A stretch of 64,000 nucleotides of DNA, from assembly GCA_963674965.2 (NCBI GenBank), contig CAXXFL010000006.1:832001-896000 (forward strand), given 5' to 3'. Origin of the DNA: a bacterium. Lineage in GTDB: Bacteria > RBG-13-61-14 > DATKZS01. Positions within the stretch are counted from its first letter, which is position 1, and every line of letters begins with the position of its first letter. A program made the translations under genes and the position numbers. The notes below the pieces were generated by a model. It did not search any database. It worked only from the letters and a program-made list of their open reading frames with translations, and had not been told where the DNA came from. Below, piece after piece: positions 9,001-40,855 of this stretch.

Positions 9001-12000
9001 CTCGGCGCTTTTATAACGGGACTTCACCCCAGTGCCGAAAGGCCTCGACCCGTCCAAGATTAACTGCTTCCAAGCCGTGCCCTTCGAGCCGGAGTCGTAA
9101 ACCCCGGTCCACGTGCCTAAAGAATCGTACCTTGCCTTGATCGAGTACAGGTCGGAACCTTCTTGGCCCTTTACCAACAATTTTGGCATGCACCATTTAT
9201 ATATACCGTTAAATTCATACTGAACCGCAAGAGAGTCCAACTCGACTCGCGCCAGGCCGCCTTCGTGTCTCATGAGAATACCGTAATTGGGGTATTCTCC
9301 ATCGATCCATCCCTGGGCCACCTCGGAAAGATCGGAGGTGTACCAGTTGCCTCCAAATACTCCATCGCTTTCAGTGTTTACTGAAACCGGCTCCAGTTCG
9401 GACTCGGATGGGCGGTTGTTCCAGCTAAGCTCGTCAACCTCGTATTGGGACGTGAGCCTGTAAAATTTTACCTTGTCCGGGTCGAGAAGCGGGGCAAGGT
9501 GATAAAATCCGCCCTGATAATACTTGAGCCTCGCGTTATTTATCGGCGTCCCGGGAGCAATTCCCGTAAAGTCGAAAAACCAGTAAATCTCGCGGGACAA
9601 ACCGGGAAAGCCGTCCACAAGTCCGGTCCAGCCGATCCGCCGGTTATCAAATACTTTGAAGTGGTCATCCGGATCGAACCCATTGTCCGGATACTCCTCG
9701 GCAACGGTGATATGCGAGTCCCGCCGAAGTCGCAACTCGCCGTTAATGGTTATTCCGATCCCGTTGGACCCGAGTTGGCCCTCCCAAAACTCGCTCTCGC
9801 CGTCCCAGTACTTCGCGATCTGGAGACCGGGAACCAGCGCCCCCAGCTTGGCCGAGTACTCGCCGTCAGCGGCGGAAAGGCCCGTTACTATGTTCCGGCC
9901 GTTCCAGTCGATGCCCGTTGTCCCCGCCGCCAAAGGCCCGGGGGTGACTATCTCCTCGATCAGCGCGCCGCTTGCGTCGTAGATGTTCGCCATCACAACC
10001 GCGTCGTCCGACAGCCCGAAGGAAAGGCGGGTCTCGTCCTTGACGAAAGGCGAATAAAGAGGCGAGAACACCGGCGGATCGGAGGCCACCGACGAGAAAA
10101 TCACCGGCGACCGCAAGGGATTGAGAGACCTCTCCGCCCGGTTGTTGTCCTCGTTCGGCTCGATGATAAGGCCGGCCTCGTCCACCACCGCCACGACGGC
10201 CTCGGCGCCGCTCGGGTAATACCAGTCGAAAACCGCCTCCGCCTCGCCCATGCCGGGGACCGTGACCGTCGCCCCGTCCACCAAATATAGCTTGTCATCC
10301 GAGTCCTTCCAGTAAACCGACAGCCCCGCCCTCGCGCTCGAAACACCGAGGTTCCTGACCGTGACGGATATGGACGTCAACGAAAGCTCGGCCGGGACCT
10401 CCGGATCGAACTCCACGTCCGTCATCCAGACCGTAAGGTCCGCCGCGTTGATCTTAAGTCCCGCGTAGGCGTCGTTATTGTCCTCGTAAAGCTCGACTAT
10501 CGAGTCATCGGGATCGACCTCGAAGAACAGGGGTACCTCCCCGTAGGCGTCCCCCGGATCGAGCTGGAAGGCGACCGAGGTCGCGGAATCTCCCGCGATA
10601 TAGGACACGCTCTCCTCGTGGACCACTTCCCCCAGGAAATCCGGGTTGCCCTTGTAAACCCGCACCAATACGTCCGAGCCCCCCGCCGGGCCCCGGTTGT
10701 CCACGCGGACCGTCACGTCCGTCAACTGGCCGTAATTGGGGCAAGTCGGATTGAAGCTCACCGCGTCCGGACCGAGCGTAAAGTCCGGCTCGTAAGGCAC
10801 GATAAGCTCGAAAGCCGCGTTAATAAGGTTGTCCGAGCGCGTCGTCTCGAGGACTTTTTTGCCCTCGTCCACGTATCCGTAAAGAACGTGAGGGCCGCCC
10901 GTCTTAAGGTCCGGATGAAACTCGAAAACGAGCCGGGCCGTGGCCCCCGACTCGAGGCCCGAAAGAGAGTCGAAACCGACGTTCCAGTAAAGGGGGTTGT
11001 TCCCAATGTCCCACCCATAAGGATAATTAACCGGCTCGTCAATATAGAGGCTCACGCCGAAATTGTCCGTTACCGCCCGGTCCCCGTCGTTACCCACCAC
11101 CATGGTGAAGGTCACCGCGTCCTTGACGGTCGGCGACGTGGGAGACCACTCGAGGGACTGAACGTATAAATTGGGCCGGTCCAGGCCGTCAAGGTGCACA
11201 ACGGCGCTCGCCAGGTTGTTGGTCTCGTCCGATTCACCGACCTTCACCAGCGGCGAGGCCATAACCCAAATCTCGTGGTCCCCCACGTCCACCTCGTCCG
11301 TGGCCCAGACGCCGCTTACCGGAACGATCGCGCCCGACTCGAGGGTGTCCGAGTCGGCGAAGGAAACGATGATATTGGAACCGTCCTCCTCCGGCTCTCC
11401 CAGGTAAAAGCCGCCCTCGATCCCCCCAATGGGGACGCCGCCCGCGTTCGCGATCTGGGCGGACAAGCCGACCGCGGTTCCCTTGATCGGCTCGGACGGG
11501 TCGAAAACCGGGCCCGAGAAGACGGAAAGGTCCGCCCCGAAGACGTCCACCACCAACGAGTTGATCGCCGCGTTGTTGCCCGAGTCGCTCTCCGGAGCGG
11601 GCCAAAAGCCGGCTATCATCTGGAGGTTGACCTCGGCCTCGACGGCGTTGACCCCCGCCTTCGCCAGTATGGTCGAGGTCATCGTCACCCGTCCCCCGGC
11701 GGGGATCGACGCGATGACGTTGCTCACCAATATATCGCCGCTCGATACCTCCTGGGCCACGATGGGAACGTTGTAACCCGGCGTGTCGCCCAGGTTGTAA
11801 ACCTCGATCGAGACCGTGACCGCGTCATTAACCGACGGAGAGGACGGCGTGAAATGGATGCCCGAGGAAAATACCGCGAAGTCCGGGATCGAGTTCACCA
11901 GCGCCTCCACCCGAGCCGCGTTGTCAAGCTCGTTCGACTCGAATACGACGTCGCCCGCGTCCGCCACGACCTCCAGCGTCCAATCACCCGCGTGGCCCAG

Positions 12001-13800
12001 GGTGTTCCACTCGAAATCCACCGCCACGGACCCGCCGAGCAAAACGCCCGCGACCGTCGCCGAGTCCAGCGCCGTCCGCTCCTCGCCGCCAACCAGGTAA
12101 AGGACCGCGCTGAACGCGCCCGCGTCCGTATAGCCCGCGTTCCCGATCTTGGCCGCGACCGAGAGCGTGTCGCCGTCGTAGGCCGGGTCGGGAGAAATCG
12201 AAACCTCGGCCGCCTCCACCTCGAGGTTGGCCCGGTACCCGTGAAGCGCGAGAAGCGCCTCGGCCGTGACGTACTCGTCGCCCGCGAAGCTCCCGTTCGC
12301 CTCCTGAGCGGCAATAAGGTACTGAAGGCCAAGATCGATCTCCGGTTTGTAGTCTCCCGTCGCCTCCAGCGCCTTTATGGCCAGAGCCGTGTCGAGCGTT
12401 CTCCGTCCGGGCTCCAGGCCGAAGCTTCCGTCTCCGTTCTGGAGCGCCAGCGTCCAGGCAAGGGCCGCGTCCAGCGCCGCTCCCAACCCGTGAGCCTCGC
12501 GATACGGGGCAAGGGCCATGATGACCTCGGCCGTAGGCGACGTCGATGAATCCATGCCAGGGCCGAAACCGAACCCGCCGTCATCGTTGGCCGCGCCGGC
12601 GAGGTAATCGATGGCGGAAATGAGAGCGTCTCCTCCTATGCCCGCTCGGTCCATGGTCTTGATGGCCAGGGCCGTGACTACGGCGTCGCTCTTAAAGCCG
12701 CCGGCGGGGGCGAAACCGCCCGAGTCGGTAACGCTCGATGAGAGGAACGCCGAAAGCTCGGCCGCCGCGTCATTGCCGGCGCCGAGGAGCGAGTGAACGC
12801 GCCTGATTTCCTGGTCGCCGTTATAGACGAGGGCGGTCTCGAGATAAGTTACCGCGCCGGACTGGGTGGAAGGATGGGCCTGGTTAAGGCGAAGGGCCTC
12901 GAGGGCCGTCGAGGTGGTCTTCACCGCTCTCGAGGAATCTACCCAAAGGCCGGTTACGTCTCGAGCGTCTATTAAAAAGGAAAGGCCGTCGTTAACGTCT
13001 ATGGCCGTGCCGGATAGCGCCCAGACGCAAAGGGCCGTAGCGTAAAGGTCCGAGCCTTGGCCGGCGTATTGAATATTGCCCAGACCGTCCCGACCCAGGG
13101 ACCAGCCCCCATCGGAGTTTTTCATGGCGCCGAGGCTTTGGGCCGTGAGGTTTATGTCGTAAAGGTCGGCTCCGTGGGCCTTGAGGCAGAGGAGAGACCA
13201 GGCGGTCTCGGGAGGAGGGCCGAAGGAGCCGTCCGGCCGTCGATTGTCGAGGATAAAGGCGTAAGCCCTGCCGTTGGATGAGCCGGCCTCGTGGAGGGCC
13301 AGGGCGGCGATGGCCGTATCGAGGAGGTTGTGGCCGGGGCCGAAGCTGCCGTCGTCGTTCTGGAGGGTGAAGAGATAGTCCCTGGCGCCGGGGTCAGGTT
13401 GGCCCGAGCGGGACAGGGCGAGGAGGGAGAGGGCCGTCACCCGGATGGAGCCATAGGAGCCGTCGGGGAGATGGAGAGAAAGGAGGTGGGCGGCATTTGT
13501 CGGTTCGGGAGCGGCAAGGAGGAGAAAGGACGCCTCCTCAGCGTTGGCGGGCGAAATCGAGGTAAGGGAAGAGACGGCGTCCGTGACGTCGTGCCCATGG
13601 GCGCCGAGGGCGGCCGCGGCCAGCCCCGACCCCCGCGCGTCCACCACCGCCCCGAACCCGCCGTTCGGACCCGCCGCGCCCCGAAGCCATTCGACCCCCG
13701 CCGTAACCGCCGGGTCCTCCTCGGCCAGGCCCGGGAAAATCGGGAGCAAGATTAGCGCCTCGCAAGTGATCAAAAGCCATAAATACGATTTCAGTTTCAT
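1..13800 (-). CDS. Giant secreted multidomain protein, >4,600 aa, 3' end beyond window start: signal peptide, prenyltransferase/squalene-oxidase (QW) alpha-barrel repeats, 6 CARDB, FlgD-Ig, DNRLRE-like, beta-propeller, 2 discoidin-like, Ig-like and FG-GAP/PQQ-like repeats
   Basis: Translated by hand from ATG at 13800 (MKLKSYLWLLITCEALILLPIFPGLAEEDPAVTAGVEWL) to position 1 with no stop seen. No listed minus-strand ORF uses this frame, consistent with an unbroken frame. Motifs: LQNDDGSFG, NSDGGW, LQNGDGSFG, QEANGSF; ESNELDN, ESDETNN, ELYEDNN, EPNEDNN (CARDB ends); LSWNNRP..QGWIDGEYPNYGILM; NVALGK x2; DLDGDGEPEI, DINGDGKADLV. Confidence 0.9.
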   Translation of the reverse strand, partial: MKLKSYLWLLITCEALILLPIFPGLAEEDPAVTAGVEWLRGAAGPNGGFGAVVDARGSGLAAAALGAHGHDVTDAVSSLTSISPANAEEASFLLLAAPEPTNAAHLLSLHLPDGSYGSIRVTALSLLALSRSGQPDPGARDYLFTLQNDDGSFGPGHNLLDTAIAALALHEAGSSNGRAYAFILDNRRPDGSFGPPPETAWSLLCLKAHGADLYDINLTAQSLGAMKNSDGGWSLGRDGLGNIQYAGQGSDLYATALCVWALSGTAIDVNDGLSFLIDARDVTGLWVDSSRAVKTTSTALEALRLNQAHPSTQSGAVTYLETALVYNGDQEIRRVHSLLGAGNDAAAELSAFLSSSVTDSGGFAPAGGFKSDAVVTALAIKTMDRAGIGGDALISAIDYLAGAANDDGGFGFGPGMDSSTSPTAEVIMALAPYREAHGLGAALDAALAWTLALQNGDGSFGLEPGRRTLDTALAIKALEATGDYKPEIDLGLQYLIAAQEANGSFAGDEYVTAEALLALHGYRANLEVEAAEVSISPDPAYDGDTLSVAAKIGNAGYTDAGAFSAVLYLVGGEERTALDSATVAGVLLGGSVAVDFEWNTLGHAGDWTLEVVADAGDVVFESNELDNAARVEALVNSIPDFAVFSSGIHFTPSSPSVNDAVTVSIEVYNLGDTPGYNVPIVAQEVSSGDILVSNVIASIPAGGRVTMTSTILAKAGVNAVEAEVNLQMIAGFWPAPESDSGNNAAINSLVVDVFGADLSVFSGPVFDPSEPIKGTAVGLSAQIANAGGVPIGGIEGGFYLGEPEEDGSNIIVSFADSDTLESGAIVPVSGVWATDEVDVGDHEIWVMASPLVKVGESDETNNLASAVVHLDGLDRPNLYVQSLEWSPTSPTVKDAVTFTMVVGNDGDRAVTDNFGVSLYIDEPVNYPYGWDIGNNPLYWNVGFDSLSGLESGATARLVFEFHPDLKTGGPHVLYGYVDEGKKVLETTRSDNLINAAFELIVPYEPDFTLGPDAVSFNPTCPNYGQLTDVTVRVDNRGPAGGSDVLVRVYKGNPDFLGEVVHEESVSYIAGDSATSVAFQLDPGDAYGEVPLFFEVDPDDSIVELYEDNNDAYAGLKINAADLTVWMTDVEFDPEVPAELSLTSISVTVRNLGVSSARAGLSVYWKDSDDKLYLVDGATVTVPGMGEAEAVFDWYYPSGAEAVVAVVDEAGLIIEPNEDNNRAERSLNPLRSPVIFSSVASDPPVFSPLYSPFVKDETRLSFGLSDDAVVMANIYDASGALIEEIVTPGPLAAGTTGIDWNGRNIVTGLSAADGEYSAKLGALVPGLQIAKYWDGESEFWEGQLGSNGIGITINGELRLRRDSHITVAEEYPDNGFDPDDHFKVFDNRRIGWTGLVDGFPGLSREIYWFFDFTGIAPGTPINNARLKYYQGGFYHLAPLLDPDKVKFYRLTSQYEVDELSWNNRPSESELEPVSVNTESDGVFGGNWYTSDLSEVAQGWIDGEYPNYGILMRHEGGLARVELDSLAVQYEFNGIYKWCMPKLLVKGQEGSDLYSIKARYDSLGTWTGVYDSGSKGTAWKQLILDGSRPFGTGVKSRYKSAETLAELELAAWSEYSSVLGSADLSVRGRYLEIEAALESYTGQYTPSIDKIVAVGVKNVVPELFAETGYHEDGEALELAGSPSVYAASNGKYRMYASDLVGNIISAVSNDGGITWTRESGTRISGPGVSDPFVVSERDGSLSVLVVEDGETTSGLVRYISEDGLALERDAVLAEADDWGFAYMGSPSIISLDDGLKRLFLVGDDGSGNAIHSAISDDGSSWTLEEGPRLGLDAFPSATEILSAEVSRRGGGQYAMLASVSEDGGPVLYELYSLDGLGFVSEPAKVGEVSNPCFVREITGVYKIFGDGSSGVFSLSASPETTVIVDDAPPDVYISSPVSGSRQSASIVIEGGATDLNFQEYELSYSLGGSSWTEISIPPSQSLQEVMNGALGTWNVSDVVDGSYSIRLEARDLAGNESEYAVDGVIVDNAGSAALADALNAPSIERPEEGDLFHASPISVTGLSGYSTRVELYREVGEVDKDDSAAVKLEWLVDPARGEHVGTGVANNGKTARLAETDANVALGKTVIPITGCGRDWPHFAEAITDGIWDDGSRGWEVCPGVSNSPYWIGIDLGRYYPAIFKVGLHKPAKNGGVKNFRIWASSTGAFAGEERVICSGVMPYAYYGEGGAEAYVQPAVRSGARYLRIEVVDAYEYLGKVTSGGFDEVEVFALYETSGEFLSEVFDAGLEMAADKISWAEDLADGTGVAVYARAGASQVPDAGWSEWVRIENGAGVSADIIGEYWQIRAVLSSDDPGVTPAVEGLDVSGHWTGWEFSSSAYTYGGDGPSAAVNPSSAGDFSTGVYGSFTNVDSERDTELLSLSYGQGVNVALGKPSSQSGVQWSARVLFDGDTSQNLTKYGGWIEVDLEGIYDLSSIRLANGTDPALGTREYRITSSISGDFSADETLLVEDAFLESDDPERLHVMPSDQLIKAGHVRVYLDGHYGKSAALSEVEVYAGYAQSGEFISDAIDLGVETDFGRAQWTSTTPEGTAIEVSVRSGDAADPSSWGGWTTLVNGQVLPESLNGGYLQYRVQMSSSDRFITPTFDELVITREGAQGNFAFSGVELNAGLNTFRARAFADLASSPVSEEVSVHYLGGGPTLAVSYPGEGSALTGEVSITGTAADAEGFGSYLLEYVSPGGSLFSITPSPVLEPVEDGILARWDTGGLVDGDYILRLSAVDIHGHEALLTRSVVIDHELPAAPVITYPTETGQPITVTSRVTDVSGTSEPDARVELYIGSELAASTDTDASGGFAFDSVTLGEGENILYAEAIDSNDNRGPRSDSISITVDGVELLASLDSVSYPAGTDVICGYTIMDVQGGRTFYNVSYKVMDAGGAVRGSGSASNVEAETAASFIWNTDGYQPGAYEFTVLVYDLEGALMESLALPFTVEADRSLSVTLVADAGSYNSSETMKFTARINSDSENYTFTSLAADFVLLDDGSAVVYSDQAETSSLVKGGHMDVPFNVIHAAYQAGIYTATVTVNEGSTTLGESTLSVRVLQDSIDKALFSRLTLEPDNVRSGAPLTASYGLRNVGNVDFTDLNARLSIRPLEGDTAVAAESTHVVTLLRGESISLSDAFSVDDWTEGYYAAVLSVGTTTLNAKSFLVDLSPPVSELLIGDPSYSSGATLYVSPETVFGLSAEDNFSPTAVTEYRVGEGDWIAVTGDFRLGFEGLETLSYRSRDLAGNVEEKKTIEVVVDPLPPEMAITDVSEPYYAHGLVAYVQPGPECGDTCELVLSVDVSDDYVGVETSEYKVDSGAWTTAPPSGQISTDAASQTLSFRLSDHLGHVSVISYQIKLNDHPSISVGLEESPDCFYFGDSFDLEVGVHNRESSPHSGVIHLTLLSPDDLPLDIKSVPFEIGANGYLDAVSGFATDPAWTYGRYKVEAEIESGELTYRPYQFPFGGYTSFYPRLEEYVSIEPLSSDYSVLYAGTTNDITMIVAGSNQACHTSQALITAELRDSMSGVIWSHTASTDIVDTRMMTLPLLFPDLPFGEYTLDYRIEWPLNHSASGSRTLLSQVAGSIVKDNQRVKYHDELEVTVSMVNPGNFHQPVSVRAHVPDLGIVSDAAELELTPGGPSGAAAVTAFESLPDDVAPGTYPVHVEATIPSGDTIGWVTSFTVAPIDPDVVASFDKDSYIAGDVLEVTFSITAGSEFGGTIPADFHVEAADLGGFVDDKTIELSVTPYAAVYSLTIPPDSISGVHFIDVSISLPNGEELEKTFAYYVPTSKLELSFSGTALSAGDTAEFTLANAGGVETDFEYFIEMDRSDLGYANRLAEGAGSVGTGGESLPLVFQIPETIKSGEYHVKCQVLDLGNGHHGVKHAMLAITGTDASLSAWTDQDVYNAVGGASDPITAEYEFSFGGGSTIDEALLDLKIVRLEYVQREPLDSWPKFRGDLANTGASSLSTDIGPGDVLWSAYLEAEVDASPVIADMNHDGVNDVVIVTRDNSFNFGGESLFVYSGVDGATLAINHDVHASATPAVGEIIDNGIHGYEVGLLVSLPAAEGYDLELLDVDLAEVERFYIQGGPVLSSPVIFPAGVSQVPYVTYQPGYIVEQSSGGCDVFLVNGDHAVIVNPNDASDNIILDSDPNEPAYGEIRGGGPSSAAVHDLDGDGEPEIIYGWARALSDSCHPELGAWMIGGVHAFNLDGSLSWSFSPYVSGLPGPLAAPVLSSPAVSDIDMDGVLEVVYLQYGATSDASHALVALSIADGDSPTVLWTSFQENPGLMISGMSSPAIADLDPSSPGLEVVVGSEKEDNPGVFAFNSDGSLAWSFTSIGPVKSSPIALDVDGDGALEVICQGAGVTTVYALNGEDGSVEWSIPVSGISSAAAGDINGDGKADLVIASSDGQIFALGEYPLPPEEVELPGVTNGGFEQGDYGWQLYDDDSLWGGYFQVGSTFDGVSSPDGSDFAALRTGPYYIELSQEITLPEGVEKIAFDLYFLTNEEPGAGNASYFSYLMDDAWNYFGGFGAMLDEMTLYSSSGADFLYETGWLPIEYELDFS

Positions 13801-13873: not shown

Positions 13874-14716
13874 TCACATGTTATTAATTATTGTCAAAGC
13901 CTCTTGATATTGTTTTCTCTTATCATCATCGGATTCATCATTAATGTTTTGCTCAATAATATTTATTACATCATCCTTATATTGGCCTGAATTAGCAAGG
14001 GCAAAGGCCGCTGCCTTTCTTACATCAGGATCGATATCATTCAATTTAGGTATTAATGACATTACAGCTTTTCGAGATTTCGAGAGATGATATGAAAGAG
14101 TGTTTATAGCGACCTCGCGTACAATCGGCATTTTGTCATCAAGCTTTTCAATCAGAGTAGGGATAATAACGTCTTCATTTTTTCCAGCGTTACCAATAGC
14201 AATAATAGCTAGAGTTCTTATTGCATCATCATCGTCTTTAATTGAACCTAAAATATTATCTAACTCTGGCAGGGCTTTTTCTCCATAATATGAAAGTGAA
14301 ACTAAAGCGGAGCGTTTTATTCTATCGTCATTCGAGTCAATTTTCTGTGATATCATTGGTACCGTAGATGATGGTTTATATTTTAATTTGCCTAAAGATA
14401 TTATCGTCTTGGATTGAACTTCTACATCTTCGTCGTTAATACTATTAATCAACTTTGGGCCTATTATTTCGGAATATACTACGTATTGCCCTAGTACTGA
14501 AGCGGATTGGCGACGGTCTTCAATCTCGCCGTTTTCATATTTATCTAGCAATTTTATTACATTTCTTTTCCATCTGCATTCTCTTATTGCGGGAAAGATA
14601 TAGATATCTGAAGATATTATTAAAATAAATATTGTTGCCGAAAATATTGTTACAAACAAGATGAACGATCTTGATCTAATGGCTATTTTCATTACTCTCA
14701 CCAATTTTATTGACAT
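13874..14716 (-). CDS. HEAT-repeat protein with N-terminal membrane anchor
   Basis: Hydrophobic N-terminal segment; repeated motifs such as LNDIDPDVRKAAAFALA and LDDKMPIVREVAINTL; AT-rich like the neighbouring toxin/immunity cassette. Confidence 0.85.
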   Translation of the reverse strand: MSIKLVRVMKIAIRSRSFILFVTIFSATIFILIISSDIYIFPAIRECRWKRNVIKLLDKYENGEIEDRRQSASVLGQYVVYSEIIGPKLINSINDEDVEVQSKTIISLGKLKYKPSSTVPMISQKIDSNDDRIKRSALVSLSYYGEKALPELDNILGSIKDDDDAIRTLAIIAIGNAGKNEDVIIPTLIEKLDDKMPIVREVAINTLSYHLSKSRKAVMSLIPKLNDIDPDVRKAAAFALANSGQYKDDVINIIEQNINDESDDDKRKQYQEALTIINNM

Positions 14717-14744: not shown

Positions 14745-15068
14745 TTAATTACCCCATTTAAATAAACCGTAAAAATATATCCCGATATATACTAGCCAAG
14801 TTAGCAACGATAATGACATTAATAATATGGGCCCAACGTCATATATTGTTATATTGCTGTGGTCCAATAGAATCTTTCGACATCTAATGCTGACTAGGTA
14901 ATAAATTATAATAAATACCCCAAATACAGCGAAAGATTCCACTCCAAATAGTTCCGTTCTGAATGCTGCATAAAATGAGGTATTAATAATGAATGATATA
15001 AGCAAGATTGCTTGTATTATATTAATTGCAATCAATGATATCTTACACATTAAGCGGCTAGTTAGCAT
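14745..15068 (-). CDS. Small 3-TM membrane protein, probable immunity protein for the orphan Rhs tip
   Basis: Starts immediately after the orphan Rhs stop; three hydrophobic stretches; AT-rich. Confidence 0.7.
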   Translation of the reverse strand: MLTSRLMCKISLIAINIIQAILLISFIINTSFYAAFRTELFGVESFAVFGVFIIIYYLVSIRCRKILLDHSNITIYDVGPILLMSLSLLTWLVYIGIYFYGLFKWGN

Positions 15069-15069
15069 G

Positions 15070-16707
15070 TTAATCTCTCCTGTGATTTTCTTTCCATTCT
15101 TCCACTTTATCGTCCATTATCTTCTCAGCTTCCTTCGAGACATCTTCATTAATTGTATCAGACTGGTTATGTTCAGAAAGATACTCTCCAACTGCCATAC
15201 CTCCAGCCTCCGCGAGATCAATATACGCATCATTTCCAAGACCATACCCTGCTTTAACTAAAGTAATAATACGCACCATATTAATATTTCTACATCTTTG
15301 TTCCAATACCATCATATAGGCATCGTTATCTGCCCATAAATATTTAGCGCAATCGTCATTCCATTCGCAATAATGATCATCATCACAATTATTATTGTAT
15401 TTATTAAGAATTCCCTGCTTTATACCAATTTGACAGTATGCTCGAACTAATGGCTCATTTTTCATTGCTTTATCGCCTAGCATCGCGGCACCAATTGCCC
15501 AGAGTATTACAGATCCAATTACTATTACGATTGCCAGTTCAAATAAAGTAAACATTCCAGATGGGTCAGTGAAATCTATTGGGTCGCAATATGTGTAAAT
15601 ATATTTATGCAAACTTTTCGGGTAAACATATCTTCCACCAAAATTATCTGTAGAAACAAATCTTCCCGAAACGGGGTCGTAAAGTCTGGCTCTTAGATAA
15701 TAATATCTAAGATTAAAGTCATAGGCGTCTCCCGTAAAAAGATGAGAAGTAATTGTCTGGTCGGTTGCGAACAAAAACGATCCGAAAGCGAGATAGGAGA
15801 ACGCGTTTGTGGTAGTACCCGAATTGGAGGAAAGCGCCCGTGATGACCCCAGGCCGTCGTAATGGAAGAACGAGACCGCAGCCTTTTCCTGACTGATCAG
15901 ATCGTCTCCAAATGTATAAGCCACTTCTTCAACCTGTGCCGCGTCGGTTTCGCGGAGGGCTTGGGAGTAGCCGGTCTGGTTGTTGTTGTCTATCAGGAAG
16001 CGGGTGGCGCCGTCGGGCGTCCGCTTGTATATGCGCTCGCCGCGGAAGTCGTAGGCGTAGGCGGCGGCGAGGGCGGCGTCCTTGTCGGCGCGGGCCATCT
16101 TGTTCTCGAGGTCCCACTCGTAGGCCCAGGTTTCCGACGGCCCGGCCTTGCCGGCCATATTGCCATTATCGTCCCACGCGTACGGCGTGACTCCCGAGGC
16201 CGCTGACTCGGTGAGGAGCCGGTCGTTCGCGTCGTAGGCGTAGGCCGTGACCAGGCCGCCCGCGTTCATCTGCCGGCGGTTCCCGAAGGCGTCGTAGTCG
16301 TACTCGATCCAGTAGGTGCGGTCGGGCTCGGGGGAGGTCCGCGCCTCGCGGGTGAGCCGATACAGTTCGTCATACTCGTAGGCGCACTCGTCCTCGATCA
16401 CCGGCCGCTCGGCCGTGTCGCCCTCCGCCTCCTTCGGCTCTCGGTAGCGCTCGATGATCCCCGTCCGGTTCCCCGCCGGGCCCAGCGTGTACTCATAGCT
16501 CGATATCAGCCCGCCCGGCCCCGAGTTCTCGAGGTAGGTCAGGCGGTTCAACTCGTCGAACTCGTAAGTGGCCAGTGTCCCGTTCGGATAGGCCATGCTC
16601 TTTCGGTTGCCAATGGCGTCGTAGGCGTACTCCGTGATTCCGTTGTCGTCGGTCACGGTCGCGAGGCGGCCGAGCGCGTCATGGGCGTAGGTCACCACGT
16701 GCCCGCC
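15070..16707 (-). pseudogene. Orphan Rhs module: 3' Rhs repeats, core and a distinct Cys-rich C-terminal domain, lacking a genuine N-terminus
   Basis: 16480-16707 closely matches 19090-19320 of the main Rhs. It has FHYDGLGS, YYYLRARLYDP and DPIDFTDPSG motifs. The listed N-terminus (MAFDHFRG...) is an out-of-frame reading of a copy of the giant gene's start. Confidence 0.85.
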
Positions 16708-16805
16708 ATAGCCGCCGGGTCCTCCTCGGCCAGACCCGGGAAAATCGGGAGCAAGATTAGCGCCTCGAAAGTGATCAAAAGCCATAATAACGATTTCAGT
16801 TTCAT
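16702..16805 (-). repeat. 104-bp diverged copy of the start of the giant CARDB gene (13697-13800)
   Basis: Direct comparison shows the same length and few substitutions. Read from its ATG it encodes MKLKSLLWLLITFEALILLPIFPGLAEEDPAAMAGTW*. Confidence 0.92.
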
Positions 16806-17008
16806 TCTTTAGTTCCTATTTTATTTGCTCAAGATAATCTATTTTATCTAATTATCCCACAAAGCTCGTCTATTTAGACGACGGCCAGGGAGCAGGTCAT
16901 CCTCCGTCATAGTTAGAATTGGCCATCTCATTAATTAAAAAAAACCAAATATATCCCCCAAAAATCCCCTGACTTACAATTTATTACCACTATTTAAAGC
17001 AAATCATA

Positions 17009-17055
17009 ATGATCTGCTGGCTATGCTCGCCCACATAGGCGAGCTATGGGTTACT
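17009..17055 (+). repeat. Hairpin-containing dispersed repeat, copy C (diverged)
   Basis: atgatctgctggctatgctcgcccacataggcgagctatgggttact resembles 48028-48109 and 48731-48813; contains the stem GCTCGCC-6nt-GGCGAGC. Confidence 0.75.
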
Positions 17056-17202
17056 CGTTGATTTAAATATATATGTGGCCTCGGCCTCACTAAGCCCACA
17101 TCCCAAGCCATGCTTTCTCCGCTTACAAATCAGGCAAATTTTATTAAAATAGATCAATTTTTCGCCTATTATACAGTAATTCCTGAATATATTTTACTTC
17201 AA

Positions 17203-17619
17203 TTAGCCTTTATCAATGCCCGCAAGGGAGAAAAGAAAGTTGTCAATAAGTCTTAACACCTGTGATTGATAACTAGTAAAGCTAATATCTTCGTATCTTC
17301 CAATTAATTCATCTTTGCCAGTTGAATACCAATAAACTTCAACCGTTAAAGTAGGTCCATCTTTTATAAGTGCAATTTTCCATGGGTCATCTAGATAGTA
17401 GATAATTGATCTTTGAATATTTTTATCTATTGTTTCATAAAATGAATATATTAAGTTGTAAATGTAATCTTCTGCAACATTTTCTAATATATTGAATTCA
17501 TCAATATATATAGAAACGGAACCGACGGCAACCTCAATACAAAATGTTAATTCATTATAATATAATAACTCCTTATCAACATCAATATAATCCAGTTCAA
17601 TATGAATTTGCTTTTCCAT
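17203..17619 (-). CDS. Probable immunity protein for the main Rhs toxin
   Basis: Begins 6 nt after the Rhs stop; small, acidic, AT-rich. Confidence 0.75.
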   Translation of the reverse strand: MEKQIHIELDYIDVDKELLYYNELTFCIEVAVGSVSIYIDEFNILENVAEDYIYNLIYSFYETIDKNIQRSIIYYLDDPWKIALIKDGPTLTVEVYWYSTGKDELIGRYEDISFTSYQSQVLRLIDNFLFSLAGIDKG

Positions 17620-17625
17620 TTATCA

Positions 17626-20600
17626 TTACTCCGGTGGAAGTGATATGACTCCAGGTCCATCTGGCCAACTAGTGATTATTACCTTTGATTCATCGCTGAC
17701 AATAACATATATTTTTTCAACACCATCTTTTGGAACGTCAAGAACATATTCAATGCATTTATTCCCTTTGTTAGCTATTCCCGGTACTTCAGTACCATGG
17801 TCGACAGCATGAATAACCCATTCTTCGACTTCATGTTCAGTCCAACTTGCAGGGAATATATCTGTTTTGAATTTTCCCTTGCGCCAAAGGCCCTTTATAT
17901 GCCTGCCTACTATATGAAACCAACCGAATTTTGTGTTGCCCCGTAATAACGTGTACCCCTTCATGGAAACCCTTCTGATAGTACCAGAATCACCAGGGAT
18001 AATTGGGTCTGTAACCACCCCTATGAAAATGAGCATCCATTCCCACGTTGCTAATTGCTCCCCAGTATCGGGGTCTACGCCTGAATATAAGGACTGAACA
18101 TCTCTCAGCATGAAAAACAAGGTTAATGTGGCAAGGCTTTCTCCCATCATTAACAAATAATTCGATACTGCCATGGCAGCCAAATAGACTCTCACGGCAA
18201 TATTTGTCATTATCTCAATCAGGCTGTAGCCGGAATAATCCACAAACTGCAAAGGATTGTTTGATGTATATAAATATTTGTGAATACTCTTGGGATCATA
18301 TTCTTTTCCTAAATAATCATCTTGAGATATAAACCTTCCGGAAAAGGCATCATATAACCTCGCTCTAAAATAGTAGTATCCCAAATTAAAATCATACGCT
18401 TCTCCCGTAAAAAGATGGGTAATTATAGTGCTTCCTGTCCTGTCGAGCATACTCCCGAACGCGAGAAAATTAATAGTGTCAGTCACCTCGCGCGATGCTG
18501 ACGTCAGCGCCCGGGTCGAGCCGAGACCGTCGTAATGGAGATAGGAGACCTCCTGCCTTCCCTGGCTGATTAAATCGTCGCCGAAAGTATAATTGACAAG
18601 CTCCACGCCATCACTTACTTCACGCAAAGCCTGCGAATAACCGGTCCGGTTGTTATTGTCGATAAGATAAACAACAGATTCCGAGTCCGTGACCTTGTGA
18701 ATTCTTTCTCCCCTGAAGTCGTATGAATAGGATGACTCCTCTTGGCCGTCCTTTTCGGCGACTGTCATTTTATTTTCGAGGTCCCATTCGTATTGCCACG
18801 TCTCGCCAGTCGAGGCTTTACCCGTCATGTTACCGTTGTCATCCCACGTATACGACGTAATTCCCGAGGTTTCCGATTCGGTAAGGAGACGGTCGTTGTC
18901 GTCGTAGGCGTATGTCGTCAATACTCCGCCGACGTTCATATCGAGACGGTTGCCAAAAGCGTCGTAATCATATTCGATCCAATACGCGTTGTTTCCCGTC
19001 CTGCTCTCGCGAGTCAAGCGGTATAGATCGTCGTACTCGTAATCGTTCACGTCGCCATTATTTTCCTTGATGGAGACACGATTTCCGGATGGTCCCAGCG
19101 TGTAGGAGTAACTTGAAATGACGCCTTCCGGCCCCGAGTTTTCGAGGTAGGTCAGGCGGTTCAACTCGTCGAACTCGTAAGTCGCCAGGGTCCCGTTCGG
19201 ATAGGCCATGCTCTTTCGATTGCCCGCGGCGTCGTAGGTATACTCCGTGATTCCGTGGTCGTCGGTGACGGTCGCGAGGCGGCCGAGCGCGTCGTGGGCG
19301 TAGGTCACCACGTGCCCGCCCGAGTAGGTCGTCTCGACGAGGCCCCCGGCGATGTCGTATTTATAGGCGATGTACTGGCCGTCCTCCTTGTCGTCGCGGA
19401 GGAGCTGCCCGGTGACGTCGTCGTAGGTGAAGACGCGGTCCCGATACGGCTCGCCCGCGCCGAACTCGTAGCCGGTATAAATCACGCGGACGAGCTGGCC
19501 CCGGCCGTTGTATTGGCGTCCGATGGCCTTGCCGTCCGGATAGGTCCGGAGGGTCTCGCGCTTCATCTCGTCGAACTCGTAATTGACGGTCCGGCCGTTG
19601 AAGTCGGTATGGGACGATGCCATGCAGCAGTCCCGATATTCCCACGTCTCGGCCATGCCCTCGGGCAGGGTCCGCGAGGTCTTGCGGCCAAGCTCGTCGT
19701 AGGTAAAGGAGGTGACGTGCCCGTTGGGATCGACGATCGAGAGGAGGTTCCCGCCCGCGTCGTAGGCATAGCGGGTCTCTCCCCCCTCGGCGTCGTCCAC
19801 GCCGATGAGGCTACCCATCTCGTCGTAAAGAAACTCGGTCCTCACGCCCGCCTGGTCCACCTCGGCCACCTTCCTCCCCAACTCGTCATACTCGACGCTC
19901 GAGCGCGTCCCGTCCGGATATACCGTCGCCGTCTTCCGACCCGCCGCGTCGTACTCGCTCTCCCAGCGGTTGTCGTTGGCGTCGATCATCGCGACCTGCC
20001 TCCCAAGCTCATCGTACTCGTACGAGGTCTCGTTGCCAAGGGCGTCGATGACTTTTTTCGTACGTCCCAAAACGTCGTACTCTCTCTGACTGACGCCGCC
20101 GCGAGGGTCCTTGCTTTGCACCACCCGGCCAAGGGCGTCGTAAGCGCTCGAGGTCTCGGCCCCGTTGGCGCGGACGCTCTTCACGGCCCGGCCAAGCGCG
20201 TCGTAGAACGTACGCGAAGCCTGACCGGTCTTGTCCACGCTCATGACCACTCGGCCCTCGATATCGTAGACCGTTTCCGTGTGCGTCCCGTCTGGAGACC
20301 ACTGCTCGATGGCGCGGCCCTGGTCGTCGTACACGGTGAGGGTCTCGGCGCCGTTCGAGTCGATGACCGAGGTCTGGAGGCCGGCGGCGTTGTACTTGTA
20401 GGCGGTGGTCCGTCCGAGGGGGTCGGTGGTGGAGATGAGCCGTCCTTTTTTGTCGTACTCGCTGGTGGTCGCGTATCCGCGCCGGTCGATGCTGGAGACG
20501 GCGTTGCCCATGGCGTCGTAGGCGGTGGAGGTCACGACCGTCGCGGGGTTTCCCAGGTAGTCGGTGACGGTCATGGAGGTGGACACCCGGTTTCCCTTGT

Positions 20601-23600
20601 CGTCGTAGACGTAGGAGGTGGTGTCGCCCAGGGCGTTGGTGGTAAGTACCATGTTGCCGCTCGAGTCGTATTCGTAGAGGGTTTCGCTCCCGAGCTTGTC
20701 CACGGACCGCGTCAGGTTTCCGCGCGAGTCGTACTCGCTTGAGCTTACGTGATCGAGGGGGTCGGTAGCGGTGAGGAGTTGGCCCCTCGAGTTGTAGGCG
20801 TAGGTCCAGACGTTGTCCATGGCGTCGGTCTTTGTAAGCATGTTGCCTTTGGAGTCGTAGGTCCAGGAGGTGGCGGCGCCGAGGGCGTCGGTCTCGCCGG
20901 TCTTGTTGCCGTCGCCGTCGTACTCGTACTCGGTCCGGTGGCCGAGGGCGTTGGTCTCGGAGACCACGTTGCCGGCGGAGTCGTACTCGTAGACCGTGAC
21001 GTTGCCGAGGCGGTCCTTGATTACCTCCTGGCGGGCGCCGGGCCGGTGGTCGAACTCGACGCGCTCCCCGTCCGGGTCCACCACGGCAATGAGACGTCCC
21101 GACTCGTCGTACTCGTTCCTGGTGGCGCGGACGCCGGTGGGCGCGACTATGTCGGTCAGGTAGTGTGCCGCATAGGCGAACCTGGTGACGGCGCCGTCCT
21201 GGAGGGTGGTGGAGACGAGGTCGCCGCTCGCGTCGTATCGATAGGTCACCTGGTTTCCGGCCGGGTCGGTCAGGGCGGTGACGCGGCCGCCATGGGCCAG
21301 GTCGCGGGTAAAGGTCACCTCCTCGATACAGTCCGAGCAGTTCCGGCCCCACTCGTCGCAGGTGGACATATCGCAGCCGTAATGCACGCCGCCGCCGTCA
21401 AAGACCAGGCGGTTGCCGTTCAAGTCCTCGACACCCGTCAGGGCGGGCGACTCCCAGGCGATGGGAGCGTCGGTGATGGGGTCGCGATCGGTAACCTCCT
21501 TGACTATATTGTACTTCGTGCCGTCCCTGGTGGTCAGGATATAGCCGGGCACGACCGACTCCTGGTAGGGCGTGCCGTAGGTTGAGTAATCGTGGAAGAA
21601 GCCGAGTATCTGTCCGTTGAGGTTGTCGTAGAGAACGCGGTTGTCCTCCGACATCTCGAGGGTGTCGAACACGCCGGGCGGCGCCTCCCACGCGGCCCGC
21701 AGGGTGACGGGGTTTTGCTGGGTCAGCTTGTAGTAGAAGGTCACGCGCCTTCCGTCGGGGAGGTTGACGGTGACGTTCCTCGCGGCGTCCTCCTTTAAGT
21801 CTATGTCGCGGAGGAACATCTTCCAGCCATGGCCGAAGTCTCCCGCCTCGTCCCTCTCGATGGAGGAGTAGGTCCTTCCCACGGTGATGGACAGGCCGCC
21901 GAGGGGCACGGTCAAGTCCTCGAAGGAGATGGTGAAGAGGCCGATCTTAAGCTGGCCCGTGACGATGAACTCGGACAAAAGCTCGGACTCCCGGCCCTCG
22001 GCGTCGATGGCCGAGAGGCGGAGGACGTAGAAGTCGTTCTTCATGTTGGTGGGATCGAGGGCGGCGACGGCCCGCTCGGCCACCGGCTCGTCCCCTCCCG
22101 AGGCCAACTCGATAAAGGCGTCGGGATCGTAGGCCCCGACCTCGTCCAGGGCCTGGTACTCGAGCTTCCACGAGACCAGGTCCAGGTCGTTGACGGTGGC
22201 GACGACGTCGGCGGGCGCGGTGATGGAGTCGCCGTCGCCGGGCGAATGTATGGCCAGCATGGGCGGCTGGTTTACGATCTCGATGAAGAAGCCTTCCGAG
22301 GCAACATAGGAGCCGGTGGAGAGGGACGCGACGTACTCGCCGTTGGGGGCGGCCTCGCCGGTATCGAGTTTTCCGTCCCACTCGAGAAGGGCCTCCGTGC
22401 CGACGCCGCTGAAGGTTTTGAGGACCGTGTTCCCCGAGGCCGTCTCGAGGGTGATGGTCCAGTTGGAATGAGCGGTTATCTTGCCGGAAACGGTAAGGGT
22501 ATCGCTAACGCCGTCGCCGTTGGGGCTTACGACCTTCGGGGTTACCGAGAAGGCGTAGAGGCGGTTGTCCGCGATGACGCTTATCGAGTCCTGGCCTTTC
22601 CTTCCCCGCTCGTCATAGGCGCGGGCGGCGATGGTGAGGGTCCCGTTGTCGTAGCGCTGGGTGTCCAGGTCGAGCGAGTACTGGCCGTTGCCCTGGCCGG
22701 TTACGGTCTCGACGACCCGGCCGTTCACGAGGAATTCCAGCTTGGCCACGTCCCAGTCGTCGTTGGCGTCCGCCGTTACCTGTATCTCGCCGCTTACCTC
22801 TTGTCCGTTCTGGGGGGCCGTTATCGCGACGACGGGGGCGGCCTGTCCCTGGTCCTCATTTTGCACCGTGACCGAGTCGCCGGAGATGAGGCCCACGGAG
22901 TCGGTGGCGGTCAGCTTGATCCGGCACGGTCCGGCCGGGTAAAGGGAGGAGTCCACGAGGGCCAGGGTGGCGTTGTCGGCCGGGCTGAGGCGGGCGTCGA
23001 GGTTTTGCCACGGGTCGCCGTTGCAGCTTATGTCGAGGGAGTAGCCCATGAAGTGCTCGTCCTTCGCCGTTCCGGCCACGGCGAACACGCGGTCCACGGT
23101 CTGGCCGCCGACGGGGCTGGATATGATGGCGGTCGGCGGCGTGGCGTCGATCTCGATCCGGGCGCTCGCGGGCAGGGCCGCGATGGTCTTGCCCGCGGCG
23201 ACGGCGTTGGCCGTGACGGTGTAGACCCCGTCGTCGGCGACGGCCATGCTCTCGTCGGTCCCGTCCCACTCGAGGTCTATGAGCCGTCCCCGGCCGGAGA
23301 ATTCCTTAATTGGGGCGTCGGAGTCGTCGGTGATGGTCACGGTCCAGTCGGACTCGCGGGAGATGCCGCCCGTGATCCTGGCGGTATCGAGCTTGCCGCC
23401 ACCGCCGGGGGAGATGACGGCGGGCGACGCCGAGAACTGGACAATATTGGCCCGGTTGCTCAGGACGTCGATCACGCCCGATATGGCGATACCCGAGGCG
23501 ATATAGGTGACCTTGTCCAGTTCCTCCTTGTCCCGGAACCAGTCGTCTATGGCGCTGATGGCGGGGGAGTAGGACCAGGCCGCGGAGGTGGTGACCTCCT

Positions 23601-26756: not shown

Positions 26757-27120
26757 CTACACTCGCGTTGGATATTCAAGCGTTTTATGGAAATTTTTTT
26801 GTTTTCTCATATTTCCATTTAATTTTAAGCACTTGGATATTACGGGAAGTGAGTCGATGATAAAAGGGATGTGTGGTCCGCGGACGAAAAGGGGCATAAG
26901 TTGATATTTCACTTGGTTCGCTTTTTCCTCCCACATGTCCGCGGGAATATTCCCGTCGTTCTCCAAAAGGATTTCATTCAATTCTTCCCAAGTGCAAAGT
27001 GGGACGGCGGTATTGGTTAGGATGTCCAGCCCAAGTAAAGTCTTCATTAATTATAAGAAGGTTATCCTGTTCTGTGTCGGAAGTTAAAGACTTCAACTTC
27101 TTACTATCATCCTTGCTCAT
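26757..27120 (-). pseudogene. Possible degraded or frameshifted gene at the end of the defence operon
   Basis: An ATG overlapping the DUF499 stop opens a 48-aa frame that overlaps the listed 96-aa ORF in another frame; no recognisable motif. Confidence 0.3.
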
Positions 27121-29894: not shown

Positions 29895-29895
29895 A

Positions 29896-30294
29896 TTATG
29901 GATGATGTTCCGTTATTACCACTAATCCTGAAATGCCCTCGAAGTCCCGGGCATTGTGTGTTACCAAGGGACAACCATAAGCCAAGGCCGTTGCAGCAAT
30001 CATTGCATCGTCAACAGCTATAGGTTGGTGCCGGCGTTCAGTTCTTATGCGACCGTAGGTTTCACAGATGCCGGGCGAATATGGAATTACCAGGTAGCTC
30101 TTTAAAGTTTCTCTTAGCTTATTGACGTTGTTTTCTGACCAATTTTTCCTGAAAGCCCCTTCGAACATTTCCCCGACAGTCATGAATGAAATGGCAAGCG
30201 TGTTTCCCTCAAGGTGTTGGCGATACTGCTCCGCGAGAGTATGTCCCTTCATGAGATAGGAGACCACGTTCGTGTCCAATACCAGAGTAGCCAC
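29896..30294 (-). CDS. vapC: PIN-domain (VapC-like) ribonuclease toxin
   Basis: LVLDTNVVS, TVGE, DDAMIAATAL, LVTHNARDF. Confidence 0.92.
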   Translation of the reverse strand: MATLVLDTNVVSYLMKGHTLAEQYRQHLEGNTLAISFMTVGEMFEGAFRKNWSENNVNKLRETLKSYLVIPYSPGICETYGRIRTERRHQPIAVDDAMIAATALAYGCPLVTHNARDFEGISGLVVITEHHP

Positions 30295-30296
30295 GA

Positions 30297-34184: not shown

Positions 34185-34720
34185 TCGCTCTCTTCGCCGG
34201 GCGGCTTGGCCAGGGGTATCCCCAGCAGATCGGCAACTTTTTTTTGGAAGTCGATTATCATCTCGGCCTGTTCGAGCCGCTTTTGGAGCTTCCCGTTCTC
34301 GCGCTCGAGGCGGGCCACTTCATCGGCCAGCGGGTTTTTGGCCTTGGGCTTGCGGCCCCGCTTTACGGGCGAAAGCGCTTTCAAGGCCCCCTCGTCCCGC
34401 TGCTTGCGCCAGGCCGTCAGGTGCGACGAATAAAGGCCCTCCCGGCGCAGCAGGGCGCCGACCTCGCCATGCCCCGAGCAGGCGTCGGCCTTCCCGAGGA
34501 TTGCGAGCTTGTAAGCCGCGGTGAAGCGCCGCCGGGCGGGCTTTTCCGGGACCTCCGGCTCGGGAAGAATGATCGGCGCCCCCACCCGCTCGGGCCGCTT
34601 GGCAGGAGTGTCCTCCGGCTCGGCCGTCCCGGTTGGGGAGACTCCGGTCGCCCTACGGGCTCCCTCCGTCTCCCCAACAATCCCTGCCTTCTTCCTGTCT
34701 TCATCCATCTCTCTATACAT
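34181..34720 (-). CDS. IS3-family OrfA (HTH)
   Basis: RRRFTAAYKLAIL..GALLRREGLYSSHL..W; an A8G run at 34237-34245 whose -1 frame is open into orfB. Confidence 0.88.
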   Translation of the reverse strand: MYREMDEDRKKAGIVGETEGARRATGVSPTGTAEPEDTPAKRPERVGAPIILPEPEVPEKPARRRFTAAYKLAILGKADACSGHGEVGALLRREGLYSSHLTAWRKQRDEGALKALSPVKRGRKPKAKNPLADEVARLERENGKLQKRLEQAEMIIDFQKKVADLLGIPLAKPPGEESE

Positions 34721-37201: not shown

Positions 37202-37217
37202 TGATTCCACCCCCGAT

Positions 37218-40622: not shown

Positions 40623-40840
40623 TTGCCAACCTTTCGGGCATTTTTATCTCGATCTTTGTCATCACCACCAGATTTTACCCACTGATCAATTTCTTCTTTA
40701 CGGAATTTCCAAAGACGACCAACCTTATGAGCTGGCATGCTCTTGCGAGATATCCACTTATATACCGTGTCCCGCTTCACACCAAGGTAGGCAGCTATCT
40801 CATCCACGGAAAGCCGGCGATCTCCTATGGTGTCAATCAT
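40619..40840 (-). CDS. Excisionase-like HTH DNA-binding protein, first gene of the defence operon
   Basis: LSVDEIAAYLGVKRDTVYKWI..PAHKVGRLWKF..EIDQW; stop overlaps the helicase ATG (ATGA). Confidence 0.88.
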   Translation of the reverse strand: MIDTIGDRRLSVDEIAAYLGVKRDTVYKWISRKSMPAHKVGRLWKFRKEEIDQWVKSGGDDKDRDKNARKVGK

Positions 40841-40855
40841 TCCTATTCTCCAAGC

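Follow-up and report, generated by a model that had tools for sequence, protein, structure and literature searches.

A pilin-like leader helix behind the autocleavage site of adhesin-type Rhs toxins

Why would two Rhs toxin tips that are otherwise unrelated both start, at the autocleavage site, with what looks like the N-terminus of a mature type IV pilin? The question is posed by a 64,000-nucleotide stretch of a bacterial genome (GenBank assembly GCA_963674965.2, contig CAXXFL010000006.1, positions 832,001 to 896,000; hereafter the window), in which a full-length Rhs gene (main Rhs) and a shorter orphan Rhs fragment lie on the reverse strand. An original prediction proposed that the released tips mimic pilins and use a pilus or pseudopilus machine for export or target entry, or are processed by prepilin peptidase. 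We find that the shared element is a leader helix, a pre-toxin module of a large clade of Sec-exported Rhs/YD toxins that do not depend on type VI secretion (T6SS), and that it apparently has not been described before. It specifically resembles the N-terminal helix segment of major type IV pilins, and the tips fail the tests for membership in the prepilin family. In the reading we favor, to which we give about an even chance, adhesin-type Rhs toxins conserve this leader helix behind the cut. The helix, which has transmembrane-like character in the subfamily of this genome, would be stored in the Rhs cocoon and used at a membrane after release.

Both junctions read as predicted. In the translation of 15070..16785 (reverse strand) the orphan core ends ...CDPIDFTDPSG-M-FTLFELAIVIVIGSVILWAIG..., with the D codon at 15567-15565, and in that of 17626..26328 (reverse strand) the main core ends ...NNPLQFVDYSG-Y-SLIEIMTNIAVRVYLAAMAV..., with the D codon at 18240-18238. 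Beyond this element the tips are unrelated, as had been stated, and BLASTP gives no alignment between them at E<=10. The features that define the junctions are the following:

15070..16785, reverse strand: orphan Rhs fragment, 571 aa, consisting of a core of ~410 aa and a tip of 161 aa (RHS_repeat, 72.8 bits)
15553..15795, reverse strand: RHS repeat-associated core domain of the orphan, ending DPSG-M (TIGR03696, 50.0 bits)
15478..15552, reverse strand: leader of the orphan tip, FTLFELAIVIVIGSVILWAIGAAML, a transmembrane-like helix with a Kyte-Doolittle hydropathy (KD) of 2.37
17626..26328, reverse strand: main Rhs gene, 2900 aa (translation and domain scan)
18229..18462, reverse strand: RHS repeat-associated core domain of the main Rhs (aspartyl autoprotease plug), ending ...FVDYSG (TIGR03696, 49.8 bits)
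18157..18228, reverse strand: leader of the main tip, Y-SLIEIMTNIAVRVYLAAMAVSNY, a weakly hydrophobic helix (KD 1.64)

The residues of the aspartyl autoprotease, an Arg and two Asp (RxR...YD...D-x-x-G), can be read in both translations, as LRARLYDPVSGRF...TDPSG in the orphan and as FRARLYDAFSGRF...VDYSG in the main Rhs; their catalytic roles are those described for SGS1 and Tc toxins (PMC9935623). The original prediction assumed that Rhs cores are cut one residue after DPxG, and this agrees with four published cleavage sites. The toxin of Photorhabdus Rhs1 starts at A1343, after D1338-P-L-G-L; Tse5 is cut at L1168|I1169 with D1164 as the catalytic residue (PMC10684867); Edman sequencing placed the cut of Streptococcus suis WapA after H2716, in TDPSG-H|I (PMC12704120); and SGS1 is cut at 2733|2734, after D2729-P-D-G-Q (PMC9935623). 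By analogy, both window proteins would be cut one residue after the G, and since the published cuts fall there, F is expected to be residue 1 of a released orphan-type tip. The predicted N-termini hold up in part: F-T-L-F-E of the orphan fits the usual cut, whereas G|Y-S-L-I-E of the main tip needs a different one. Here, hmmalign places a one-residue deletion at the F position (SGY-SLIE), such that the two tips of the window differ in register and the main tip would begin S-L-I-E if cut in the usual way. A glutamate at position 5 (Glu5) is present in the orphan when counted from F; the main tip has it only with a cut right behind the G.

The end of the core domain marks the same boundary. TIGR03696, whose cut-off of 32.5 bits both cores exceed, covers residues 331-411 of the orphan (profile positions 1-76 of 76), its last position being the M after G, and a weak TIGR02532 match begins at residue 412. 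On the main core end (P0002) it covers residues 247-324 (profile 3-75 of 76) and ends at G. The same abutment, with weak pilin-family matches that start at G+2, is seen in P0001, P0133, P0097, P0056, P0153 and P0106, the last five of which had been picked for their pilin-like look.

We next assessed how far the element is conserved. A phmmer search of 1.84 billion representatives, with the orphan core end plus helix as query, gave 87,039 matches at E<=1e-3, and the junction could be placed in 149 of the best 150. Counted from the G, position +1 is variable, +2 is F in 85/149 tips, +3 is S (50) or T (48), together 98/149, and +4 is L (76), I (27) or V (11), together 114/149. Position +6 is occupied by E (43), S (34) or Q (14), and further preferences are found at +13 (I, 71), +15 (G, 46), +16 (I, 55) and +17 (L, 76). 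Counted from F, the consensus module is F-[S/T]-L-x-[E/S]-h-x-h-h-x-x-I-x-G-I-L. Enrichment of the shared element in homologues, on which the original prediction depended, is confirmed and is position-specific: the exact motif x-[FY]-[ST]-[LIV]-x-E follows the G in 20 of the 149 tips and occurs at 3 of the 24,523 remaining positions of these tips, a ~1100-fold enrichment at the fixed position. A looser pattern is present in 54/149. Among a further 68 tips, taken from genomes of named species, F is found in 38, S/T in 42 and E in 16 tips, with four exact matches. A search for related loci with a single protein as query found nothing, but an alignment as query did find relatives. No Pfam or NCBIfam model spans the first ~25 residues after the cut in the relatives scanned.

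The source genome (6.5 Mb) contains 30 Rhs core ends with a readable junction, six of which belong to the clade of the window genes (59-100% identity to the orphan core end). The six clade tips start G-M-FTLFEL, G-Y-SLIEIM, G-Y-FNLIKL, G-F-FTLMELLIAVVII, G-Y-FTIYEIMIAI and G-N-MPSLISLIVAL. All six open with a hydrophobic 19-mer (KD 1.64-3.05), and three of the six carry Glu5 in the family register. The looser pattern is found in 3/6 tips of this clade versus 0/24 tips of other Rhs clades. We built a hidden Markov model (HMM) from tip residues 2-24 of the 149 sequences (tip HMM); it scores the six clade tips at 6.8-13.0 bits and the 24 other-clade tips at 5.7 bits or less. The main tip leader reaches 8.8 bits, in an alignment to the family module that deletes the F position; its helix holds an Arg and an Asn, and its hydrophobicity is marginal. 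The window itself provides a negative control, from whose tip the module is missing by both pattern and tip HMM:

49384..59355, reverse strand: second full-length Rhs, from another clade, 3323 aa, with its tip after ...NDASG at ~50104 (-2.1 bits on the tip HMM)

The module is not tied to one kind of toxin. Behind it in the relatives we found AHH, Ntox43, NucA/NucB, CdiA_C, MafB19 deaminase, Tox-PL-2, M23, Aspzincin, cell-wall hydrolase and EndoU domains. PT-HINT often lies between module and toxin, ~80 residues downstream. Records of the clade come from Desulfobacteraceae (the best match), many Gammaproteobacteria, Cyanobacteria, Clostridia, Omnitrophota, Acidobacteria, Anaerolineae, Verrucomicrobiota, Pirellulales, Myxococcota and Maribacter. 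Long adhesin-type N-terminal regions with PKD, He_PIG, Big_9, cadherin-like, FG-GAP, VWA, SLH, PASTA or transglutaminase domains are present in 16/16 full-length relatives, and none of the 16 has a marker of the T6SS, T5SS or T7SS (no PAAR, VgrG or LXG). The main Rhs conforms to this architecture: an N-terminal signal-anchor is followed by a transglutaminase core (47.7 bits), Big_7 (52.1 bits) and Ig-like domains, a DUF6531 plug (29.2 bits) and RHS repeats (RHS_repeat, 357.3 bits), and the domain scan found no PAAR, VgrG or LXG domain. Because the leader is common to toxins of many unrelated activities, it provides a concrete handle on the delivery step: it bears on how Rhs toxins outside the T6SS pass from the producer surface into a neighbour, and it can be mutated, swapped and followed biochemically.

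How specific, then, is the likeness to pilins? The register of the module, F1-[ST]2-L3-x-[E/S]5...I12-x-G14-I15-L16, is that of FTLIELMIVVAIIGIL, and the N-terminus of the major pilins of the source genome itself, FTLIELMIVVAIIGILAAIAIP, shares it. We searched the tip HMM against the 64,904 six-frame open reading frames (ORFs) of at least 50 aa of the genome. Pilin N-termini were retrieved at ranks 1-4, 6, 9 and 20, with HMM position 1 always on F1 and best E-values of 6.2e-4 and 2.7e-3. An HMM from the 101 least hydrophobic tips again ranked two major pilins first and second (E 0.004 and 0.022), and one from the 68 named-genome tips returned the same top two (E 0.046 and 0.13). When the FTLxE part was removed and columns 8-24 were used alone, the two major pilins still ranked 1 and 2, in register, at E ~1; an HMM of the first six positions alone was too short to rank anything. 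Three column-shuffled control HMMs reached maxima of 8.1-10.7 bits and retrieved no pilins. In 21 further genomes, related to the source at levels from the same family to the same domain, a profile of 67 named-genome tips found matches in 21/21, and the top loci that we read, each from another genome, were in 12/12 cases K-G|FTLIELMIVVAIIGILAAIAIP pilins with profile position 1 on F1. In hhalign comparisons with 19 pilins, the tips reached a probability of 95%, the amphipathic tips 92.8% and the named set 60.8%, with five shuffled-column controls at 0.1-8.3%. On these profile comparisons the leader element reads as specifically alpha1N-like, position by position a degenerate copy of the start of major type IV pilins.

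These results bear on the possibility that the resemblance is due to chance, or to a generic hydrophobic helix with no particular likeness to pilins. Hydrophobic helices do readily give weak N_methyl matches, and the official prepilin HMMs miss their thresholds on the tips. Against this stand the enrichment of the exact motif at one fixed position, the failure of the shuffled controls, and the fact that pilins rather than other membrane helices top the tip-only profiles in the source and the other genomes, always in register. We regard chance as so improbable that it is excluded for practical purposes.

Likeness is not membership, and the Rhs tips fail as members of the prepilin family. The original prediction named the PF07963 and TIGR02532 models as its test, and every tip tested falls below the cut-offs. 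The orphan tip, the best prepilin-motif match among the six clade tips of the genome, scores 14.9 bits on PF07963 (cut-off 21.2) and 13.9-14.0 bits on TIGR02532 (cut-off 16.3); the main tip matches neither model, and of the other four clade tips three reach 7.4-11.9 bits and one has no match to the prepilin models. Genuine pilins of the same genome score 28.2-41.6 bits on the prepilin model. PF07963 is absent at E<=0.1 from all 115 relatives scanned (up to 696 aa, out of the 150 representatives), at E<=0.01 from 16/16 full-length relatives, and from the precomputed Pfam lists of 48/48 relatives. Conservation of Glu5 across the family, the second test, proved weak: the residue is found in 43/149 tips (29%) and in 16/68 of the named set (24%), whereas it is described as 'almost invariably' present in bacterial pilins in a review (PMC4471445). 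The same review defines a prepilin by a short hydrophilic leader at the protein N-terminus that ends in Gly(-1), and alpha1N by 21 predominantly hydrophobic residues (PMC4471445). In the Rhs proteins the motif is internal, 410 to ~2700 residues into the protein, no basic leader peptide precedes it, and F comes two residues after the G, which places Gly at -2. A hydrophobic stretch of ~21 residues follows the cut in the orphan (KD 2.37), marginally in the main tip (KD 1.64), and is transmembrane-like by our own criterion in 16/149 relatives; Glu5 is present in just 3 of these 16. In most relatives the module forms an amphipathic helix with a hydrophobic stripe, broken by polar residues and even Arg, unlike alpha1N. 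No pilin globular domain was detected in the Rhs tips, and their cut would presumably be made by the autoprotease outside the cytoplasm; pilins are cut by prepilin peptidase at the cytoplasmic face.

Under true pilin mimicry, autocleavage would replace prepilin peptidase and expose the N-terminus of a mature pilin, and the toxin would enter the pool of pilins in the cytoplasmic membrane and be handled by parts of the type IV pilus (T4P) or type II secretion system (T2SS); the platform, the ATPases and the prepilin peptidase/methylase would serve as entry route or receptor, or the toxin would act as a poison subunit. The likeness specifically concerns major type IV pilins and extends over ~22 positions, including I12-x-G14-I15-L16, well beyond FTLxE, and the module starts at the known cut site, so that F would become residue 1. 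Some relatives look far closer to pilins than the window tips do: P0097 has a match to GspG that extends over 47 residues (E 6.5e-4, 19.7 bits, below the cut-off), P0157 reads WTVIDTMMTIGIIGILLALATAP, and P0045, which has the architecture of the main Rhs, reads RISP-YTLTALSLAVAIIGILATIAIP. The weak conservation of Glu5 is not fatal, because Glu5 mutants can co-assemble with wild-type pilin, as stated in the review (PMC4471445). The source genome also encodes one prepilin peptidase (PF01478), T2SS and T4P genes and nine N_methyl matches, besides a T6SS sheath gene.

Several observations speak against mimicry in addition to the sub-threshold models, the scarcity of Glu5 and the polar interruptions of the helix. 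The pilin-like stretch is offset from the cut site by one residue in the main Rhs and by four in P0045, which has Ala instead of Glu5. With pilin topology (N-in, C-out), nuclease domains would end up on the periplasmic side. The Rhs genes of the window have neither pilus nor T2SS genes as neighbours, nor the prepilin peptidase, N_methyl or T6SS sheath genes, and the clade is also present in Clostridia and Anaerolineae records. We consider mimicry improbable, and slightly more so in a version for the wide clade, in which the protease does the job of prepilin peptidase, the toxin joins the pilin pool of the target and is recognised by the filament machinery, and the module is an anciently captured pilin segment. 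We found nothing in the sequence that ties the leader to pilus or pseudopilus machinery or to prepilin peptidase. If mimicry were true, type IV filament machinery would recognise a toxin in the target membrane, with the machinery as entry receptor or translocon or the toxin as a poison subunit.

In an apolar environment, the charge of the free alpha-amino group could be neutralised by an acidic residue that lies one helical turn away. For pilins, Glu5 and Phe1 have been proposed to act in this way. On this view, the pilin likeness would represent a shared physical solution or the ancient capture of a pilin segment, and would not be proof of a hijacked machinery. Whether by mimicry, common descent or a shared physical solution, the module constitutes a family-wide pre-toxin element that has no model in current domain libraries.

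In the mechanism we favor, the Rhs aspartyl autoprotease would cut one residue after the DPxG glycine and make the module the new N-terminus. We infer that the hydrophobic lumen of the cocoon holds the helix until release, and that the helix then partitions into the cytoplasmic membrane of the target cell. In the orphan type the helix would anchor the Cys-rich tip, which probably acts in the periplasm or membrane; in the main tip type it would start the import of an EndoU-like nuclease that acts in the cytoplasm. We count in favor of this reading that the ORF downstream of the orphan codes for a protein with three transmembrane segments, and the ORF behind the main tip for a soluble one. SGS1 helices and the C-terminal toxin (CT) of Tse5 provide a precedent for hydrophobic cargo in Rhs shells.

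A competing explanation confines the module to the producer. It would either make up the P' side of the cleavage site or be a helix that docks the N-terminus of the cargo on the C-terminal plug or the inner cocoon wall, and would act in loading and timed release, without a role in the target; its pilin likeness would be convergent, arising from an aromatic P1' residue for the aspartyl protease and a helix that packs through small residues. We assign this explanation a modest chance. It accounts for a module that goes with the core clade rather than with the toxin type (toxins of at least 10 families stand behind it), that directly adjoins the protease domain and that in most cases is amphipathic, bearing a hydrophobic stripe; the post-cleavage segment of SGS1 touches the shell via hydrophobic patches (PMC9935623). 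It does not account for T6SS-type and other Rhs clades, which cleave without the module (0/24 other-clade tips in the genome), nor for S. suis WapA, whose tip starts IWKTLTNAY (PMC12704120). The full transmembrane-like helices of the close subfamily and the pilin likeness out to positions 12-21 are likewise left unexplained.

A number of points weigh against the membrane leader that we favor. As only 16 of the 149 helices are transmembrane-like and most are amphipathic, membrane spanning cannot be the universal role of the module. Module-bearing toxins (nucleases, deaminases, an M23 peptidase, a cell-wall hydrolase) act in different compartments, for which reason a step that they all share, for instance packaging or cocoon exit, fits better than crossing of the inner membrane. 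Because the module precedes both periplasm- and cytoplasm-acting toxins and is amphipathic in most members, a docking or cleavage role on the producer side stays alive. The evidence of conservation also has its limits: among 32 more distant relatives the module fades (three loose and two exact matches), the relatives are not independent and their counts thus overstate the number of independent events, and two of the 149 representatives, P0005 and P0008, are tips of the source genome itself. The hhalign probabilities are generous, because the pilin set was chosen in part by the tip profile.

We compared the leader with the nearest known systems. The pre-toxin modules PT-TG and PT-HINT likewise stand between the scaffold and interchangeable toxins and are conserved independently of the toxin. 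They differ in position: PT-HINT follows ~80 residues downstream in relatives, and the PT-TG-like region of the main tip starts only at tip residue 38, which makes the leader helix a separate element ahead of the known pre-toxin domain. Other pre-toxin or entry modules of polymorphic toxins are the CdiA-CT entry domains and the prePAAR transmembrane domains, and Bacillus WapA is a Sec-dependent Rhs toxin of the WapA type. S. suis WapA-CT1 resembles the proteins described here as a T6SS-independent surface Rhs with a conserved TDPSG site and a pre-toxin segment ahead of the toxin; it differs in its released N-terminus, which is not pilin-like, and in its Gram-positive cell-wall anchoring (PMC12704120).

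The solved structures nearest to the core end are those of the mosquito proteins SGS4 and SGS1 (E 2e-8 and 5.2e-6, respectively; PDB 8fjp and 9on3 for the pair), Rhs/YD shells of the bacterial type with C-terminal helices and an aspartyl-protease site one residue after DPDG (PMC9935623). Predicted transmembrane helices directly follow the protease site of SGS1 and lie inside the shell against hydrophobic patches (PMC9935623). In this eukaryotic salivary protein, however, the segment comprises ~230 residues with six predicted transmembrane helices and lacks a bacterial-type toxin domain, and its first helix, IAVTLVLMIIGAIVG, is without an F-T-L-x-E start. Tse5 of Pseudomonas aeruginosa shares the cut one residue after G and a hydrophobic cargo: the cocoon encapsulates its CT, which can spontaneously partition into lipid (PMC10684867). 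It differs in that it is delivered by the T6SS via PAAR, the whole CT is a pore-forming membrane toxin, and unrelated toxins have no conserved leader in common.

Full-text literature searches found no paper that ties Rhs tips to prepilin-type motifs, and the searched part of the 2012 polymorphic-toxin survey contains neither 'pilin' nor 'prepilin'. A Bdellovibrio paper links the YD-repeat protein Bd0109 to pilus regulation and cites a Myxococcus YD-repeat mutant defective in pilus retraction; both are leads only and do not concern toxin tips.

The remaining parts of the two cassettes are as follows:

16478..16707, reverse strand: recombination anchor of the orphan, 230 nt, with 89% nucleotide identity to 19091-19320 of the main Rhs
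15073..15477, reverse strand: rest of the orphan tip, Cys-rich and mostly polar (translation)
14745..15068, reverse strand: candidate immunity gene of the orphan tip, 107 aa with three hydrophobic segments, by hydrophobicity a membrane protein
17629..18156, reverse strand: rest of the main tip, a PT-TG-like pre-toxin region and an EndoU-like nuclease (Pfam matches below cut-off)
17203..17619, reverse strand: candidate immunity gene of the main tip by its position alone, 138 aa, soluble, of low G+C content

Unrelated tips, low-G+C cassettes, small downstream ORFs and a recombination anchor are together what is expected of Rhs/YD polymorphic toxins, and by these sequence criteria the window genes qualify as such. 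The orphan fragment cannot make a whole cocoon on its own. The 89%-identical anchor would permit displacement of its tip into the main gene. In a blastn comparison of orphan and main gene, identity falls to 66% past the anchor and stops at 15591/18264, short of the junction. The G+C content of both cassettes is 0.24-0.45, versus ~0.65 in the core, and the drop begins a few hundred bases upstream of the junction.

In the main tip, PT-TG (PF14449) scores 21.7 bits against a cut-off of 23.5 over tip residues 38-73 (18010..18117, reverse strand), and EndoU_bacteria 21.0 bits against 25.3 over tip residues 113-190. The 138-aa ORF beyond it has no family match and no hydrophobic segment in our scans. 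For the remainder of the orphan tip no family was found, PT-TG gave no match and the ESM Atlas no usable one; in a word-based search of longer proteins, the orphan tip found only itself and the main tip nothing. Directly downstream of the orphan's putative immunity gene, 13874..14716 (reverse strand) encodes a low-G+C protein of 280 aa with one N-terminal hydrophobic segment and HEAT repeats.

Elsewhere in the genome, arrays of ~2-kb orphan modules are found at C2:79-100 kb, C6:735-750 kb, C2:10-14 kb and C4:370-381 kb. Some tips recur, unchanged or almost so, in two of these arrays, with identity across the ~70 residues shown (for example C6:735574 with C2:97910, and C6:749345 with C2:100277). 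In a further orphan cluster at C6:473-480 kb, a weak relationship joins the tips C6_476329 and C6_479852 (BLASTP E 7e-5), and the ORFs downstream of them (L001 7267-7812 and 10832-11356, both reverse strand) encode single-anchor proteins with a shared motif, LWHKYNPLYK or LWYRYNPLY; they look like a diverged family of toxin-immunity pairs. A T4P minor-pilin operon with PilY1 (1405 aa), PilX and two N_methyl proteins lies at C6:459,000-466,000. We considered a functional link between this cluster and the pilin genes and rejected it: the operon is an ordinary PilY1/PilX/minor-pilin operon ~8 kb off, isoamylase, SIMPL and ComF-like genes lie in between, and the closeness is probably a coincidence. 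A repertoire of hundreds of prepilin-like proteins, of the PVC type, was likewise rejected, as the genome has only nine N_methyl matches.

Two further regions of the window flank the Rhs cassettes. A giant open frame of more than 4600 aa (1..13800, reverse strand), which runs off the window and contains CARDB, FG-GAP, F5/8 type C and Ig-like domains, represents a surface adhesin adjoining the cassettes. Upstream of the main Rhs, 27120..47157 forms a mobile or defence-like island that encodes a DUF499 protein, a PIN protein, an rve integrase with an HTH transposase, a methyltransferase-like protein, an SNF2 helicase with NOV_C, a primase-polymerase with D5_N and a tyrosine integrase.

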